This document shows positions 31,601-54,093 of a stretch of DNA of 64,000 nucleotides, piece after piece. The notes under the pieces are model-generated. The model had not been told where the DNA came from, did not search any database, and saw nothing but the letters and a program-made list of their open reading frames with translations. This stretch comes from a virus (Duplodnaviria > Caudoviricetes). Made by a program: the position numbers and the translations under genes. The stretch covers positions 13,829 to 77,828 of the IMG/VR virus record IMGVR_UViG_3300012943_000004; one strand, written 5' to 3'. Each line of letters starts with the position of its first letter. Position 1 is the stretch's first letter.

Positions 31601-31627
31601 ACTGGATTAGTTTCTAGAAAAACCAAG

Positions 31628-31684
31628 AATAGGCTGGTTTCTGGATAGAATCTGTCTAGAAACCAGCCTATTTCTTTGTCTTTT
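31628..31684 (+). terminator. Intrinsic terminator after the lysin gene
   Basis: AATAGGCTGGTTTCTGGA / TCTAGAAACCAGCCTATT stem followed by a T-rich tract. Confidence 0.8.
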
Positions 31685-31812
31685 TCAGTAAAATACTACT
31701 AAACCAGTACACATACTCCATCTTATAGTTAGTCTTGTGTTCGGCCAAGGATCGGTGGATATGCTCCACCGCTTTTGGCTAAGAGGTGGAGCATATTCGT
31801 AGAAAAAGCAAC

Positions 31813-34431: not shown

Positions 34432-34893
34432 CCCGACACGCGACTACCCGAACCGCCTACCGTTCCCAACGGTAGGCGGTTCGTCGCTTCCTATGCCACG
34501 TGGCACGCGCTAGGCGCCGATCTAACGGGCCAACAGCCATAGCGGGTACGCGGATACCCGCCACGGTAAAGAGGCCCGTAAAACGGCACCTAGCGCGTGC
34601 CACGTGGCGCGCCGCTAGCGGCGCGCGTCGCCCGATCCGGCCTAGCCGCAATCCAGACAAAACGGACTTTCCGGCCGTACCGTGACAAATCGGTACAAAA
34701 CAGTCACATCCACCTTTCTAGCCCATTCAGGTCAAAACGGACAGTCGTTCGTAGACCTGAATGGGCTAGAAAGTGGGACGTTGGCGCAAAGTCGCCCTGT
34801 TCCACACAGGTTAGCCCTTGAGTCTGGCTAACCGAAATAAACCTGGGTCCACACGGATTCAGGTCCATTCTCGTTTTTAGGAGGCAATCTTTC

Positions 34894-40499: not shown

Positions 40500-40508
40500 A
40501 AGCCGCCA

Positions 40509-40720
40509 GCATGGCAGGCAGTGTTATATTGCCTCCTAGCTCCACTGTCTGCCGTGCCGGATTCTTCAAGATGTTGAATCCCAAGTCGTGATATCGGGAC
40601 CGATAAGTGATACCTAATCACCTCGGTTTTTATGCTTGCTCTACGCCAAGTGTGGGAGTAGAGTTGGCGATAGCACGACAACAGCACAACCCATCCAGGG
40701 GTGAATCGTCCGATTCACCC
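40509..40720 (+). ncRNA. Structured intergenic RNA or long 5' leader (unassigned)
   Basis: 15-bp stem with G-U pairs, a three-way junction closed by GTCGTG/CACGAC, and a 9-10 bp terminal hairpin. Confidence 0.5.
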
Positions 40721-40752
40721 GAAGCGGCTCAATCCCTCTCAAGGAGTACCAA

Positions 40753-41703
40753 ATGTCTCGCCGCAACCCGCAGAACCCCGACCAGTCCGCCGAGTCCACC
40801 GAGACCGACGCGCAGGTCGACCAGTCCGCCTCGACCGAGGACTCCACGCAGGAGTCGACGACCGAGACCCCAACCGAAGAGACGAAGGCCGCTGCGCCCG
40901 ACACCTCTTCCTTCAAGTCGGCGCTCGACGCTGCGGTCGCCACCGCAGACCCGGCTGACGGTTCCGTCAGCGACGAGAACCTGAAGCCGGTTCTCGAGGC
41001 CTTCGGAAAGCTCGACGGCCAGAAGGCACGCAACGCCGCCAAGCGACTGATCGAGGACGGCGTGACCGCCGAGGTCAGTAACGGGAACCTCATCGGAGCT
41101 CGTTCGTACATCGCAGTCCGCAACGCCGTCTCGTCCGCAACCGTCACCTCCGCGCCGAAGCCGCCCGCTGACCCGACTGCTGCCTACGTGCAGCGTCAGA
41201 CCGCGGTTCGTCTCGCCGTCGCCGTCCTGGGTCTCAAGGTGCCCGAGGGTGTCTCCGACGAGTGGGCCGACAAGGTGAAGGCCGCTGTCGAGACCGACAA
41301 GCCCCAGCTGGAGGCGTACGCCGCCTGGCTCGCCACTGGCGAGTCGGAGGGCGAGCCCGAGGTCAGCCGTTCGGTCAAGGCTGCCTTCAAGATCGCCTCC
41401 GGAAAGGGCATGGGCGGTGGAGGCGGCAAGAAGTCCGGCGACGTCTACAGCGGCCCGCGCCGAGACGTCGGAACTCACATCGGTCAGGTCTTCGCCAAGC
41501 TCGAGGTCGGTTCGTTCCTGACCGTGAACGAGATCGCCAAGGCTGCGTCCGAGGAGTACGGCAACGAGCGGCCCTCGTCCGGCGCGATCAGCGCTCGCCT
41601 CTTCCCGAAGCCCGGAAAGAACGGCGACCGCAAGCCCAACCTGCCCAGCGGCATCGAGTCGGACGCCACTGGTGCATCGCGAGGCGCCCGCAAGGTCGCC
41701 TAA
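40753..41703 (+). CDS. Putative DNA-binding protein (PSSGAISA HTH-like family, copy B)
   Basis: AAGGAG RBS; LTVNEIAK...RPSSGAISARL C-terminal HTH-like segment; strongly GC3-biased codons. Confidence 0.72.
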   Translation: MSRRNPQNPDQSAESTETDAQVDQSASTEDSTQESTTETPTEETKAAAPDTSSFKSALDAAVATADPADGSVSDENLKPVLEAFGKLDGQKARNAAKRLIEDGVTAEVSNGNLIGARSYIAVRNAVSSATVTSAPKPPADPTAAYVQRQTAVRLAVAVLGLKVPEGVSDEWADKVKAAVETDKPQLEAYAAWLATGESEGEPEVSRSVKAAFKIASGKGMGGGGGKKSGDVYSGPRRDVGTHIGQVFAKLEVGSFLTVNEIAKAASEEYGNERPSSGAISARLFPKPGKNGDRKPNLPSGIESDATGASRGARKVA

Positions 41704-41717
41704 CCGAAAACGTCAAG

Positions 41718-41760
41718 AGGCGGTCTGTTGAAGCTGGGGAAGCTAAACAGACCGCCTTTT
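41718..41760 (+). terminator. Intrinsic terminator
   Basis: AGGCGGTCTGTT/AACAGACCGCCT stem plus TTT. Confidence 0.8.
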
Positions 41761-41779
41761 GGCACTTCGGTCCAAAATC

Positions 41780-41977
41780 GTACTGCGCGCCAGGCTTTTG
41801 CTCGACTGTCCAATCGCTCTCGGTCAAGCAAACACCCGAGCCTGGCGCGCAGTACCCTCCAGACCTGACTGATCTAGTCAGACTGGTTCATATGGCTGTA
41901 TCTGATGAAGTCCTTCAGCTGGATACTAATCAGGTGCAGCTTTCTGAACCAGGAATTAAAGATTCTGGTTCAGAAAG
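41780..41977. ncRNA. Array of four adjacent strong hairpins (unassigned structured element)
   Basis: 17-bp perfect IR (41780-41796/41839-41855), hairpin 41859-41886, 12-bp stem with G-U (41895-41940), 13-bp perfect IR (41940-41977). Confidence 0.45.
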
Positions 41978-42130
41978 AAAAGAGCTGGGTCGACTATCCG
42001 GTAACGAGACAGAAAAAAATAATCAAGACGGGTTAACAAGGTTTAGATGGAACTCATAATTCCCTGATCCTGTCTGTCTGACCTAGCTCCCATTACTCGA
42101 TTCAATCCTCCGAAAGGAGAGTAAAGCATC

Positions 42131-42967
42131 ATGGCTATCAAGTGCGGTAACTGTACGCAGTATCACGACACCATTCAAGATGTCCGAAAGTGCTGCGTTG
42201 GCGCAAAGTCTGTTTTGTCTACCGACCAGACAGTCGTCCTCGTACGCCCGGAGCCTCCTGTCGCTCCGTACGTGCCTGAGTTCCAGATCTATCCAGGCCG
42301 ACACAAGAGGTACACCTTCAACCGACCCCAAGGGCCTCCGAGTCAGCGTCAGTTGTCCTGGTACGAGGATCTCGGCGGCGACCCCGAGTGGGCGGCGACA
42401 GAGTTGTCCTGCCAGGAGCTGGCCGACCGGATCACTGACCGATTGAACCGCAGGGACGCTGGCGTGGACATGGCTGGCGATGCCGTCGTGACCACCACAA
42501 GCGCGCCTGTAGTGTTCGGTGACCGAACGCGCAACACGACTAAAGTGCCCCTGGTGATGCTCCGGGAGATCCCTGATGGGTACTACGCAGCACAGATGGA
42601 TACGACGCAGCCTTGGCAGTTTCTGCGCGTAAGTCGGCCAAAGAAGAATAAACTGGCGGGCTGCATCAAGATCCAGTCGCAGCACAGCGATGTTCTCAAG
42701 AACATCATGCTGGTCTACCCTGACGACTCGCTCGCGGTGTTCGACAGGTCGTACGAAGATGCGATCCTTCTGTCGGCACTCGACCCGGTGACTGCGCATA
42801 TCGCCTATGGTCGAAAGATGGGCTACTGCTGCTGCTGCGGCAAGCAGCTCACTGACCCGCGCTCTCGCTACTATGGTATCGGACCAGACTGCGAGAAGCG
42901 CAACGAACTCATCATCATTCGCACCAACGAGACAGACGGGCCTTACGTCCCTGGTGACGATGAGTAA
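42131..42967 (+). CDS. DUF6011-like zinc-binding domain protein
   Basis: C-terminal GYCCCCGKQLTDPRSRYYGIGPDC; N-terminal CGNC...C. Confidence 0.75.
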   Translation: MAIKCGNCTQYHDTIQDVRKCCVGAKSVLSTDQTVVLVRPEPPVAPYVPEFQIYPGRHKRYTFNRPQGPPSQRQLSWYEDLGGDPEWAATELSCQELADRITDRLNRRDAGVDMAGDAVVTTTSAPVVFGDRTRNTTKVPLVMLREIPDGYYAAQMDTTQPWQFLRVSRPKKNKLAGCIKIQSQHSDVLKNIMLVYPDDSLAVFDRSYEDAILLSALDPVTAHIAYGRKMGYCCCCGKQLTDPRSRYYGIGPDCEKRNELIIIRTNETDGPYVPGDDE

Positions 42968-43433
42968 GAGGCAGATGTCGAAGGCTACCTTCGTTACGTT
43001 GGCCTCTTTCGTTGTCGCCGGAGGCGGCTTCGTTCTCGGAGTGACCGCTGCAACCTTGAGTGTTACCCCAGAGGTCGATGTCGTCAAGAGTCCAACGACA
43101 GTCGTCGTGACAAAAGAAGTCCCGGTCGCTACGACAAAGACTGTGACCAATCACGATGTTCCACAGTCATGCTTGAACTTGATTGCCGAGTCCGAGCAGG
43201 CCGTTAGGTCGGCACAAAGTCTTGGAGAATCGGGAGACGCTCAAATCCTGATCCTCGAGGAAGTTCGAGTTGCAATCGGGTCTGGCAAGATCAACTCGGT
43301 TGAGTTCAACACCGAACTTCAGGATAAACAGAACGCCCTTAATAACAAGACACTTCACTCTGTGCAAAACCTGTCTGAGTTTCAGGCATCGTTCGACGAG
43401 CTTAAAGCTTTGTGCGAACAAGATCTGGACTAG
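42960..43433 (+). CDS. Membrane-anchored or secreted hypothetical protein
   Basis: Start MSKRQ overlapping the upstream stop; hydrophobic N-terminus. Confidence 0.7.
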   Translation: MSKRQMSKATFVTLASFVVAGGGFVLGVTAATLSVTPEVDVVKSPTTVVVTKEVPVATTKTVTNHDVPQSCLNLIAESEQAVRSAQSLGESGDAQILILEEVRVAIGSGKINSVEFNTELQDKQNALNNKTLHSVQNLSEFQASFDELKALCEQDLD

Positions 43434-43436
43434 ACA

Positions 43437-43815
43437 GCCTCAAAGAAATGAGGTAGTATTGAGCATGACCAATAACTCCAGAGCGCCGCCGAATGGTGAG
43501 CCTTAAAGGTACTAATTGTGTAGTATATTATTGGGTTAGGTAAGGCCGCAATCTCGTGAGCGCCTCTGCAACAAGCGCGAAAGGTCCTCGGGTTAGTACC
43601 GTGGGATAGAGTCTTCTGCGAAATAGGAAGACAAGATGCAATTACATAAAGGACTTCCGGTGAAGCCTGATTGAGGCTTACGTGGAGGAAGCGCCTGTTG
43701 TTCGCCTTTCTGTCAAATTGAAACGAGAATTGTGGATCGAGCTCCTATAAGTCGTGGTGAATATAGATCCTGCGCACTGGAGCTCGGTTCAGAAATCTCG
43801 TAGCAAACTCGATTA
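43437..43815 (+). ncRNA. Candidate large (~380 nt) structured ncRNA with a pseudoknot
   Basis: ORF-free gap; many complementary pairs including long-range stems and an H-type pseudoknot at 43734-43796. Confidence 0.6.
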
Positions 43816-43837
43816 ACAAACTCTCAAAGGAGAAGTA

Positions 43838-44428
43838 ATGAAGATCACCGACGCTTGGGTCTATGACCCTCTGGATGAAGGAAAGGTTGCGCGTCCTCTT
43901 CTGGAGCTTGAACTCGATTCAATTCCAGAAGAGAAGGAATCGATCAAGATCGAGAATCATGGAACCTGGAAATACACCAGGTTTGGCTTTCTCGTGAAGA
44001 TCGACCGCATGCCTGAAGCCTCAAACCCCGAGTATGCAATTGGAGCTTGGAATCGATTCAGGCATTCTTCTGCAAACATTTTCCCGATGGTTCTAGCCAG
44101 AGCGTACTATGACCATGACTTCGAGATGTTGCTCGGAATGTCGCTAGGCAGAGCTCGGGGCGTCCTTCGGAAGAGCGACCCGGAGTGGAAGTATTCACTT
44201 TCGGACAAGGACGCTCAGCACGGCAGAATCTATTGGGATCTCATCCAACGAGAGCCGATCTGCAAGTTCTGGATCAAGAACATCGGTGACGACGGCGACA
44301 TCTGCGCCGTTCCGTCTGCTGGCCGAATCACAGAGGATCTGACCGAGATCACTCTCTGCAAGAAGCACCTCGAAAAGCACAATTCAGATCAGGCGAAGCG
44401 GCGAATCGCTTCGGAATCCTCCAAGTAA
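43838..44428 (+). CDS. Hypothetical protein with a C-terminal Cys/His motif
   Basis: 196 aa; AAGGAG RBS. Confidence 0.8.
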   Translation: MKITDAWVYDPLDEGKVARPLLELELDSIPEEKESIKIENHGTWKYTRFGFLVKIDRMPEASNPEYAIGAWNRFRHSSANIFPMVLARAYYDHDFEMLLGMSLGRARGVLRKSDPEWKYSLSDKDAQHGRIYWDLIQREPICKFWIKNIGDDGDICAVPSAGRITEDLTEITLCKKHLEKHNSDQAKRRIASESSK

Positions 44429-44439
44429 GGAGAGTAACA

Positions 44440-46026
44440 ATGCCGTTCCAAAAGGCGCCATCGTGCGCTGATTGTCCGTCCTGTCTGACCGCGGGAGACG
44501 CAAGTAGCTTCTTTCGCAAGGGTATTGGCGTATCTGCCTGCGCAAGGTTCGGTACACCAATGGCAAGGCCGGACTCGAGTCCCGACGAGATCGCAGCTCG
44601 TCAGCGCCACTTCGCTTCCAAGTGCCCCAAGTTCGGAGAGCCGAAGCCTCAGATCCCCAACTTCGAGACCGTCAAGATGGAAGTTCTTCTCGGTATGCCG
44701 CAAGTCGGAAGCGGTGAAGGCTACGCGCCGGAACTCGTCTCGTCATGCAAGGCGTGCGTCCACTACCTCAATGAGGACAAGGTTGCAAACGAGTGGGGCT
44801 GGAGCGTTCCTATCTGCGCCGCAAAGGGAACGCTGCTTCTCGGCAATCGATTGACCGTGGAGTCGAAAGACTGCGAATACAAGTCTTTCGCCGGCATATC
44901 CCTCGGTAACGGCACCCCCAACGGTGACGGCTTTTCTACAGGCTGGTACAAGTCGCTCCAGTTCCTTCCGGAGTATGCGCCTGGATTTACAGGATCGGTT
45001 GCGACAGCGTTCGTTCAGGTTCAGCAAGAGCTGATCGAGCCGTCGACTTACGAGACCGACGCTCCAGTCAGCGCAGACGATGCAGCCAGCGGGATTCGTG
45101 CCTGGCGCAAGATCGTGTCGCAGGAGGATGAAGTCTTCTCGGTGATGATCCCGGTCTACGAGCGGAGCTTCTTTACTCCCTTGGAGCAGCGAAAGATCCC
45201 GAACACTGGCGACTCTGAGCACCCTGAGCACTATGTCGACCACTTCGACGGAGTATATACAGCCTCCTTCTGCTGGCAGGTGACCGACCAGACTCCAGCT
45301 TTTTGGGGTCAGCCCGGAACCGGAAAGACCGAGTTTCTGCGCCATATGGCATGGCTCATGCAGATTCCGTACGAGCGCTTCAGTATCACAGCCTCGTCGG
45401 AGCTCGAGGATCTCGCCGGAAAGATCATGGTTAACCCGACTGACGGAACATACTTCCAGTACGGGCGGTTCGTCAAAGCCTGGCAGCGTCCCTGCGTGCT
45501 CGTCGTGGACGAACCGAACACTGGCCAGAATGACGTCTGGCAGTTCTTCCGTCCACTGACCGACGACTCCAAGCAACTCATTCTCGACATGAACGACGGC
45601 GAGACGCTGGATAGGACCGACGGAACCTTCCTGGCCTTCTGTATGAACCCAGCCTGGGACGTCAAGAACGTTGGAGCGAATCCGATCTCGGACGCCGACG
45701 TGAACAGGCTCATGCACAACGAGATCCCTCTGCCTGACGAATCGGTGGAGATGGAGATCATCAAGCAGGCCTGCGAAGATGGCGGATTCGAGCTCCGTCA
45801 AGACCAGCTCGAGACGATCATGGCGATCGGCACAGAGATCCGCGGACTGTGTGACAACGGCACTCTCCCAATCACCTGGGCGATCCGACCACAGATCAAA
45901 GTGGCCCGCGCACTGCAGGGCTTCAAGCCTCTCAAGGCATATAGTCTGGCGGTTGCAGATTTTCTGGAGCCGTCCGTTCGTGAGCAGATTCTCGACGTAG
46001 TGAACGCTCACGTGTCCGAAGGATAG
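44440..46026 (+). CDS. MoxR/CbbQ/CobS-type AAA+ ATPase with Cys-rich N-terminal domains
   Basis: GQPGTGKT Walker A, VVDEPN Walker B, FCMNP, DVNR; N-terminal CxxCxxC clusters. Confidence 0.88.
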   Translation: MPFQKAPSCADCPSCLTAGDASSFFRKGIGVSACARFGTPMARPDSSPDEIAARQRHFASKCPKFGEPKPQIPNFETVKMEVLLGMPQVGSGEGYAPELVSSCKACVHYLNEDKVANEWGWSVPICAAKGTLLLGNRLTVESKDCEYKSFAGISLGNGTPNGDGFSTGWYKSLQFLPEYAPGFTGSVATAFVQVQQELIEPSTYETDAPVSADDAASGIRAWRKIVSQEDEVFSVMIPVYERSFFTPLEQRKIPNTGDSEHPEHYVDHFDGVYTASFCWQVTDQTPAFWGQPGTGKTEFLRHMAWLMQIPYERFSITASSELEDLAGKIMVNPTDGTYFQYGRFVKAWQRPCVLVVDEPNTGQNDVWQFFRPLTDDSKQLILDMNDGETLDRTDGTFLAFCMNPAWDVKNVGANPISDADVNRLMHNEIPLPDESVEMEIIKQACEDGGFELRQDQLETIMAIGTEIRGLCDNGTLPITWAIRPQIKVARALQGFKPLKAYSLAVADFLEPSVREQILDVVNAHVSEG

Positions 46027-50144: not shown

Positions 50145-50162
50145 TTGCCGGATAACACTTCT

Positions 50163-50197
50163 ATGCGGGTACGGTTGCCAGGTAGCCGTACCCGCAT
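50163..50197 (+). terminator. Strong hairpin after the vWA gene
   Basis: ATGCGGGTACGGTTGCC / GGTAGCCGTACCCGCAT, 17 bp with two G-U pairs. Confidence 0.55.
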
Positions 50198-50280
50198 TAG
50201 GATGGAGCCTAAACCCGCGCCACGCTGGCGCGCCTCAATCCGTCCCGCCTGAATTGGCGTATCATAGGAGAACTTAAGAA

Positions 50281-52900: not shown

Positions 52901-53513
52901 TGAAGATGATGGCTCGGATCCTCCAAAGCCCCCCGAGCGCCTCTATAAGCCTGGCGCTCGACGGTCGAGCCCCTCAATGCGAAACCGAAAATCGGTAGGG
53001 AACTTTGACCCCAGCAGATACGCATGGGTCAACATTCGTGAACTTGAAGTAGTTCTTCAAGTCTCTGAAGATCCTGAATCGGGCGTCGGGGTTGGACCAG
53101 AAATCGTTCTGGTGGTTAGAGCGTTCCCTCGAAGTTACGTGTACCTAAACCTGTCTAACATGAACCATATAGAGCTTGAGGCTCTAAAGGAAATATTTAC
53201 AACTGCCATCGATTGGGCAGAGCCTATCTGCATCGCACGAGACAAGGAAGCCGAAGATGCCGCAAGAGAAGGTGACGACTCTTACATTAGGAACTATCGA
53301 CCAATTCCGCAATTGGTTTTTAGAAAGAGGCTTGAGCGAGAACGGAGCGAAGGCTTATTGCACGGATCTCAGGATGTTACTCCAGGCAGCGAAGGTGGAA
53401 GCGATTCCGCAGGACCGCTTCGAGAGGGCGTCGGCTCTGTGGCTGAACTCGACGAAATCCCTTCTAGCTCCGAGAACAACACAGAGGAGACTGGCGGCAC
53501 TCAGGTCTTATAG
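52866..53513 (+). CDS. Hypothetical protein
   Basis: 215 aa; the 3' end overlaps the recombinase gene in another frame. Confidence 0.65.
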   Translation: MSTTEEPIRPPNEDDGSDPPKPPERLYKPGARRSSPSMRNRKSVGNFDPSRYAWVNIRELEVVLQVSEDPESGVGVGPEIVLVVRAFPRSYVYLNLSNMNHIELEALKEIFTTAIDWAEPICIARDKEAEDAAREGDDSYIRNYRPIPQLVFRKRLERERSEGLLHGSQDVTPGSEGGSDSAGPLREGVGSVAELDEIPSSSENNTEETGGTQVL

Positions 53514-54093
53514 CAAGTGGGCCGGCTGGGGAGACTATCTTCTCAATGATTACAAGGCTCCAAAGCCAGGCAAGTCGATTCCGCACCCTCTTCCTGAAGG
53601 CATAGATGGGATTGATCGCCTTATTGAAGTCTGCGGAAACGACAAACAGCGAGCCGTAATTGGCCTTTGCGGATACGCTGGCCTTCGCGTGGGCGAAGCG
53701 ATTAGTATTAGTCCTCGCGACATCGAACCTCGGGACATGATGCTGACGGTTCGAGGGAAGGGCGATAAGGTCCGTAAGATTCCCATGTCGCAGAAGTGTT
53801 GGGAAGCTCTCAACGGAGCTTATGTAACCGCTTGCTTAACAAAGCAAAAGACACTCGTTTCCTACAATGACAGGTCAGTACGAAGAATGATAACCCTTCT
53901 AGGCGAGAGGGCCGGCTTATCGAGGCCGATCGCAAGCCACGATCTGCGAGCTACCTTCGGGACCGCTGTCTTTAATAAGACTGGCAACCTTCGAACGGCC
54001 CAGGAGCTCCTTGGACACAGTAGTTCGGCCACGACCGAGATCTATACCGGAGTCGACCTCAAGCAGATGCGTGATGGAGTTGATTTCGAATGA
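53257..54093 (+). CDS. Tyrosine recombinase (XerC/D-like)
   Basis: AGLRVGE (R), RGKGDKVR (K), HDLR, LLGHSS, TEIY catalytic residues. Confidence 0.92.
   Translation: MPQEKVTTLTLGTIDQFRNWFLERGLSENGAKAYCTDLRMLLQAAKVEAIPQDRFERASALWLNSTKSLLAPRTTQRRLAALRSYSKWAGWGDYLLNDYKAPKPGKSIPHPLPEGIDGIDRLIEVCGNDKQRAVIGLCGYAGLRVGEAISISPRDIEPRDMMLTVRGKGDKVRKIPMSQKCWEALNGAYVTACLTKQKTLVSYNDRSVRRMITLLGERAGLSRPIASHDLRATFGTAVFNKTGNLRTAQELLGHSSSATTEIYTGVDLKQMRDGVDFE

Follow-up and report, generated by a model that had tools for sequence, protein, structure and literature searches.

An ORF-free, folded gap before a MoxR-vWA gene block in a phage genome as a possible structured 5′ leader

The window analysed here, a stretch of 64,000 nt, comes from a complete 77.8 kb IMG/VR virus record with direct terminal repeats. 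Structural genes are located on the − strand up to ~26.5 kb, and from 26.8 kb on nearly all genes lie on the + strand, including those for an AEP-type primase and a DnaG-like protein, many small genes and one tRNA. A tyrosine recombinase/phage integrase is encoded at 53257-54093 (Pfam PF00589, E 3e-23), which together with the direct terminal repeats points to a temperate phage or to a role as a resolvase. The region under study has the following layout:

42131-42967, + strand: DUF6011 protein
42807-43433, + strand: 208-aa ORF, the 5′ neighbour of the gap
43434-43837 (404 nt), + strand: ORF-free gap, from the stop of the 208-aa ORF to the ATG of the 196-aa ORF
43838-44428, + strand: 196-aa ORF, the 3′ neighbour of the gap, which opens the MoxR-like ATPase/vWA block
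44440-46026, + strand: MoxR/CobS-like AAA+ ATPase
3′ of the ATPase, + strand: HNH endonuclease, then a 925-aa CobT/vWA-like protein

The nearest isolated relatives are phages of Tsukamurella, Gordonia and Rhodococcus, with an ATPase identity of ~40%, and the nearest metagenomic relatives reach an ATPase identity of about 50-52% at most. A protein search with the 196-aa ORF retrieved only itself, and a search for related loci with a single protein returned none. In L004-L009 and L016, tblastn with the 196-aa protein matched the ORF directly 5′ of the ATPase gene (E 2e-18 to 4e-5); the protein shares with these counterparts a common MKI..A.V.DP start, and its N-terminus is complete. The 208-aa protein matched ORFs in L004, L017 and L032. 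The flanking genes are conserved in distant relatives, whereas the gap is not. Since both flanking ORFs are conserved and the N-terminus of the 196-aa protein is complete, the gap is neither an intron nor the site of a split gene.

An earlier, sequence-only reading of this DNA had described the gap as free of ORFs, and this description holds: there is no + strand ORF of at least 30 aa, and the longest stop-free + frame spans 42 codons. Neither tblastx against related loci, nor tblastn with the small ORFs of the relatives, nor a Pfam search of the open frames revealed a decayed gene. The − strand contains a 104-codon stop-free frame (43430-43744) with no usable start, its longest started ORF being 37 aa; this frame, which is unusual in composition and matches nothing in Pfam, is probably due to chance. 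The GC content of the gap is ~47%, compared with 55-58% in its neighbours, and G exceeds C across it (G-C skew +0.14 to +0.23).

The + strand of the gap folds with a minimum free energy (MFE) of −135.9 kcal/mol (z −4.63), and none of 100 shuffles folded as well; the − strand fold reaches −110 kcal/mol (z −2.49). Pair probabilities were obtained from ViennaRNA, and the whole fold has low positional entropy. It consists of a small 5′ hairpin and three domains:

43437-43454, + strand: small 6-bp hairpin GCCUCA/UGAGGU just 3′ of the stop codon, mean pair probability 0.96
43479-43568, + strand: domain 1, an extended irregular stem with CAGAGCGC/GCGC-CUCUG as its closing helix
43569-43700, + strand: domain 2, a multi-branch junction with four arms, closed by CAACA-GCGC/GCGC-UGUUG
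43718-43806, + strand: domain 3, a nested irregular 89-nt hairpin with arms at 43718-45 and 43779-806

The small 5′ hairpin carries no U tract, and domain 1 contains GCCUUA/UAAGGC and an A/U-rich tip. The domain limits were drawn from the fold itself, which flatters the z-scores of all three domains: −29.8 kcal/mol for domain 1 (z −2.0 on the + strand and −2.7 on the − strand, with 9 of 200 shuffles as good, a weak result), −47.4 kcal/mol for domain 2 (z −4.1 and −4.05) and −40.7 kcal/mol for domain 3 (z −6.6 on the + strand versus −3.5 on the − strand). With nearly the same z-score on both strands, domain 2 says nothing about which strand is functional.

The sequence-only reading had proposed a multi-domain ncRNA with a pseudoknotted 3′ domain. 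Its ORF-free + strand structure and its three domains are borne out here, and so are the helices it had traced as CCTCA/TGAGG, GCCTTA/TAAGGC, GTCTTC/GAAGAC and AAGCCT/AGGCTT, CAGAG-CGC/GCGC-CTCTG (43479-86/43560-68) and CAACAAGCGC/GCGCCTGTTG (43569-78/43691-700), all of which are present in the MFE structure with mean pair probabilities of 0.8-1.0. A further helix, AGGTCC/GGACTT, is absent from the MFE structure, which uses GUCCU/GGGAU instead. The three TAGTA words are at chance level, as one among 15 pentamers with at least three copies in the gap, and a suggested loop-loop (kissing) pair, AATTGTG/TGCAATT, is likewise at chance level. The pseudoknot itself is not supported, since the same bases form the nested hairpin of domain 3 at an energy about 20 kcal/mol better.

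Domain 3 comprises 28 stem positions with a 13-bp helix (pair probability 1.00) and an inner hairpin, and contains four G·U pairs and zero A·C mismatches. In the predicted fold, this 89-nt hairpin appears to be the best-supported functional piece of the gap, and a strand-specific one. The 3′ partners of the proposed pseudoknot had been placed 10 nt too far downstream, GATCC lying at 43766-70 and GGAGCTC at 43779-85. The crossing GGATC/GATCC helix (P1) competes with the 13-bp helix. The helix GAGCTCC/GGAGCTC (P2) alone gives −11.5 kcal/mol, P2 together with the TATA/TATA stem (P3) −8.8 kcal/mol and P1 alone −5.2 kcal/mol, so that the crossing parts sum to ~−17 kcal/mol at best, which before any pseudoknot loop penalties already leaves them more than 20 kcal/mol behind the nested hairpin. 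The genome contains 75 crossing 5-bp/7-bp motifs of the same geometry, and shuffled genomes contain 22-51.

The order of these segments had also been likened to the topology of HDV-like ribozymes, a likeness that is not supported in view of a short P1, an energetically costly P3, the better nested hairpin and the frequency of such crossing motifs by chance. HDV-like ribozymes have a P1 of ~7 bp with a conserved G·U wobble at the cleavage site. P1 of the gap, GGAUC/GAUCC, has 5 bp and opens with the pair G43734-C43770, and cannot be lengthened by the flanking U43733 and U43771; P3 consists of four A-U pairs and raises the energy. The catalytic C of HDV-like ribozymes is the first position of J4/2 (PMC10879173). 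The joining strand in the gap, 43771-78, is UGCGCACU, which has a U first and three C, in a register left unfixed without P4 and P1.1. Minimal HDV-like ribozymes without P4 occur in phages (PMC10879173), so the absence of P4 alone is not decisive. The gap shares with the HDV-like and theta ribozymes (PMC10879173) three complementary segment pairs in the same order and an occurrence in a phage; it differs from them in having no covariance-model match, a short P1 without G·U, a weak P3, no tRNA neighbour and a pseudoknot that is out-competed by a nested hairpin.

Folding of this degree was compared with 26 control windows of 404 nt taken on the transcribed strand, which had a mean z of −2.6 (sd 3.4); 7 of the 26 lay at z ≤−3.5 and 4 at z ≤−4.6. 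The fold of the gap is better than that of its shuffles, mainly through the 3′ hairpin and the middle domain, and is not exceptional against the background of the genome. Five other gaps in the window are also structured:

41704-42130: structured gap, z −10.5
31601-31728: structured gap, z −9.8
34432-34596: structured gap, z −7.4
40500-40752: structured gap, z −5.9
50145-50280: structured gap, z −5.4

Since these gaps are equally or more structured (z −5 to −10), folded intergenic RNA is a habit of this genome. They form long perfect hairpins, in contrast to the many short helices of 43434-43837.

Known RNA families gave no match. In Rfam 15, cmscan found no match in the gap at the gathering thresholds (whole window) or at E≤10 (651 nt and 351 nt), including for riboswitch, T-box and group I/II intron models, and ARAGORN found no tRNA or tmRNA; the earlier statement that tmRNA, RNase P and intron signatures are lacking is upheld, and the suggestion of a divergent GOLLD or ROOL finds no Rfam match at either threshold. 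Tandem Repeats Finder reported nothing in the gap, the direct repeats are short and at chance level, there is no MITE and there are no iterons, and the rest of the genome contains no further copy of any part of it. A type III toxin-antitoxin RNA and a CRISPR-like or iteron array were rejected on the absence of tandem repeats and of direct repeats above chance level. The large ornate RNA classes GOLLD, ROOL, OLE and raiA are defined by many covarying members (PMC12286853, PMC5737381). The gap shares with them a size class of several hundred nt, a predicted multi-domain fold and a phage location; it differs in having no Rfam match and no homologues and in lying 4 kb from the only tRNA. As judged from its sequence, the gap falls outside all known RNA families.

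A blastn search of 50,697 phage records found no homologue of the gap, nor did nhmmer or blastn on 33 related loci that surround the orthologous ATPase. When these loci and 22 related phage genomes were scanned with a covariance model of domain 2, only domain 2 itself was recovered, and exact-word scans of IMG/VR and GTDB genomes gave no match to the gap. An exact-word scan of JGI metagenomes hit 84 contigs with matches of 20-22 nt inside a DnaE-like coding sequence, a location that marks them as chance matches. The 20-mer concerned, located where domain 1 meets domain 2, equals a conserved DnaE-like stretch (..RLCNKRVLEALIDAGA..) in 84 soil metagenome contigs (L035-L114); a GC-rich 20-mer can yield many false matches. 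The designation of a new ncRNA class, which would need relatives and covariation, is unsupported, as neither was found in the collections searched.

The same slot, between the counterparts of the 208-aa and 196-aa ORFs, was inspected in the relatives. In L004, it holds a 92-aa ORF followed by 241 nt with terminator-like hairpins and then TTGAGA-N17-TGcTATACT ~25 nt before the start codon; in L006, it holds TTGCGC-N17-TGgTATGAT and a small Zn-ribbon ORF; and in L007, several small ORFs. The segment L006:545-761 (also in L005), from a relative of ~50% ATPase identity, carries a strong extended −10 promoter and an uncalled 49-aa Cys/Arg-rich ORF. The syntenic gaps of the relatives are mostly coding or of a promoter-plus-terminator type, and none has the architecture of the gap described here. 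Leaders in the relatives are ~20 nt long. In this kin, the block headed by the 196-aa ORF appears to have its own strong σ70-type promoter in the slot.

At its two edges, the gap carries the following candidate signals for transcription and translation:

43431-43459, + strand: σ70-like promoter candidate TAGACA-N17-TAGTAT, 9/12 consensus matches, weak alone
43465-43506, + strand: 13-codon ORF M-T-N-N-S-R-A-P-P-N-G-E-P, 5 nt after the TAGTAT −10 candidate
43807-43837, + strand: translation leader ACTCGATT..CAA..CTCTC-AAA-GGAGA
39422, 40753, 42131, 43838, 44440, 46335 and 47367, + strand: starts of genes with an anti-SD-like word

The promoter candidate is the only one found for this slot in the phage; its −35 element overlaps the stop of the 208-aa ORF, and the predicted transcription start is at ~43465-43467; the candidate has no extended −10, and a hairpin lies within its spacer. 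In the 13.5 kb between 38.5 and 52 kb, all four promoter-like matches on the + strand lie in intergenic gaps. No promoter was found in the 31 nt between the long hairpin and the start of the 196-aa ORF. Given this, and the strong Shine-Dalgarno (SD) sequence, the mRNA of the 196-aa ORF must include domain 3.

The 13-codon ORF runs into the 5′ strand of domain 1 and ends inside this domain. Speculatively, it could be a leaderless upstream ORF, with a spacing that would arise by chance about 1 time in 10 by our estimate. Mycobacteria have leaderless upstream-ORF attenuators. The gap resembles these in its TANNNT −10 candidate followed after 5 nt by the ATG of the 13-codon ORF, and the relatives of the phage infect Corynebacteriales; it differs in lacking a run of regulatory codons, except for one Pro-Pro, and its spacing may be due to chance. 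An attenuator that combines the upstream ORF with the alternative pairing 43476-86/43772-82 was rejected, as it gave no coherent terminator/antiterminator scheme; a 10-of-11 inverted repeat is expected by chance ~0.65 times in 404 nt (estimate).

At the 3′ edge, the SD AAGGAG (43827-43832) lies 5 nt before the ATG and is partly paired to CUCUC (43821-43825). The last 30 nt of the gap hold a motif common to the leaders of the genes at 40753 and 42131. In seven consecutive + strand genes, the GGAG SD is preceded at 3-6 nt by the anti-SD-like word CUCC or CUCU, as in the mini-hairpin CCUCC-GAAA-GGAG before 42131. Such pairing was found in 8 of the 17 GGAG-SD genes in the window, compared with 1.7 ± 1.2 in shuffles, 0 of 500 of which reached 8. 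The SD mini-hairpins may constitute a module-wide translational gate.

Our preferred reading, to which we give an even chance, is that the gap comprises a promoter candidate, a long structured 5′ leader and a common SD mini-hairpin, and would serve as a cis-acting regulatory spacer in the rightward transcription unit of the phage, not as a free-standing RNA gene. The gap has a promoter-like site at its 5′ end, no ORF, an SD and start codon at its 3′ end and structure on the sense strand. What argues for the leader is the absence of an ORF or decayed gene, the + strand bias of the fold, the positive G-C skew and the strand asymmetry of domain 3 with its G·U pairs; the promoter-like site at the 5′ edge, the relatives' promoters in the same slot and the common SD motif point the same way, as does the equal structure of other gaps. 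Transcription from the 43431-43459 promoter, read-through from a promoter candidate at 42033, or both, would yield an mRNA with a leader of ~370 nt, which would fold into two branched domains and the very stable 89-nt hairpin and would end in the partly paired SD. RNase III cuts long hairpins in phage early mRNAs, such as the lambda N leader and the T7 early region. By analogy with such RNase III sites, the long hairpin could act as a processing, stability or pause element, and the hairpin and the SD mini-hairpin could together set the translation level of the 196-aa ORF, the MoxR-like ATPase and the vWA block. Like the lambda and T7 hairpins, the hairpin in the gap is non-coding, on the sense strand, within one transcription unit, long and irregular with more than 20 pair positions, and located some tens of nt 5′ of a ribosome-binding site, with a promoter nearby. 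It differs from them in the lack of a nut- or put-like motif and in a longer leader with two extra branched domains.

Several observations count against a leader. The leaders of the relatives show that the operon can do without a 370-nt leader, and the promoter candidate has only 9 of 12 consensus positions, no extended −10 and a hairpin in its spacer. In addition, the modelled build of domains 1 and 2, with its branched short helices, looks nearer to an RNA gene than to terminators or processing hairpins.

It is rather unlikely, in our view, that the gap is incidental, that is, a variable slot which arose when a gene was lost or replaced, which contains little beyond a promoter and an RBS and whose fold is what moderately G-rich spacers of this genome yield in any case. 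The slot does vary among relatives (L004, L006 and L007), the gap has a z-score in the range of the genome background, in which 7 of 26 windows are at z ≤−3.5, domain 1 has a z of only −2.0 and the GC content is below that of the neighbours. Against this, no remnant of the relatives' neighbouring ORFs is detectable, phage genomes seldom retain 400 nt of idle DNA, and the −40.7 kcal/mol of domain 3, with compensating G·U pairs on one strand only, makes an accident unlikely.

An unlikely alternative as well is a stand-alone, lineage-specific ncRNA of ~340 nt that is transcribed from the promoter candidate at 43431-43459, ends at the long hairpin and acts in trans or in an RNA-only assembly, the downstream genes being served by read-through. 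The multi-branched and well defined fold (mean pair probabilities of 0.8-1.0, low positional entropy), the z-scores of domains 2 (−4.1) and 3 (−6.6), the lack of an ORF and the promoter candidate at the 5′ edge are all in keeping with such an RNA. The hairpin without a U tract could be an I-shaped terminator if the host is actinobacterial, as is suggested by relatives that infect Gordonia, Tsukamurella and Rhodococcus. However, no collection searched holds a homologue and hence there is no covariation, the overall z-score is ordinary for the genome, no Rfam model matches at E≤10, and termination at the hairpin cannot be complete, because no separate promoter for the downstream ORF was found 3′ of it. 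That 43466-43806 (~340 nt) is the singleton founder of an unseen class of phage ncRNA, with its own promoter and maybe working with the MoxR-vWA proteins, is quite improbable.

A DNA-level element, either a replication origin or a single-strand initiation site, is very unlikely. Cumulative GC skew over the whole genome is lowest at 42.2-43.2 kb, adjoining the gap, the GC content dips locally and domain 2 folds equally on both strands; but this skew minimum is a shallow one within a flat basin that extends from 33 to 47 kb, the gap has no iterons, tandem or direct repeats and no part repeated elsewhere in the genome, the primase genes are 14 kb off, and domain 3 is strand-asymmetric, as an RNA would be.

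Finally, a minimal HDV-like self-cleaving ribozyme without P4 at 43734-43785 is scarcely credible: the order GGAUC, GAGCUCC, UAUA, UAUA, GAUCC, GGAGCUC fits P1-P2-P3-P3′-P1′-P2′ and P4-less minimal forms are found in phages (PMC10879173), but no Rfam HDV-like model matches at E≤10, the 5-bp P1 opens with G-C instead of G·U, adding P3 costs energy (−8.8 kcal/mol, against −11.5 kcal/mol for P2 alone), the crossing parts reach ~−17 kcal/mol against −40.7 kcal/mol for the nested hairpin on the same bases, crossing motifs of this size are common (75 in the genome, 22-51 in shuffles) and no tRNA adjoins.

If the gap did encode a free-standing RNA, it would be a new large phage ncRNA beside a MoxR-vWA system. 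As a structured leader, the gap is one more example of a well-known type of element. Should the leader reading be true, the gap would reflect ordinary phage gene regulation, and the wider interest would lie only in the genome-wide folded intergenic RNA and in the SD/anti-SD pairing in seven consecutive genes.
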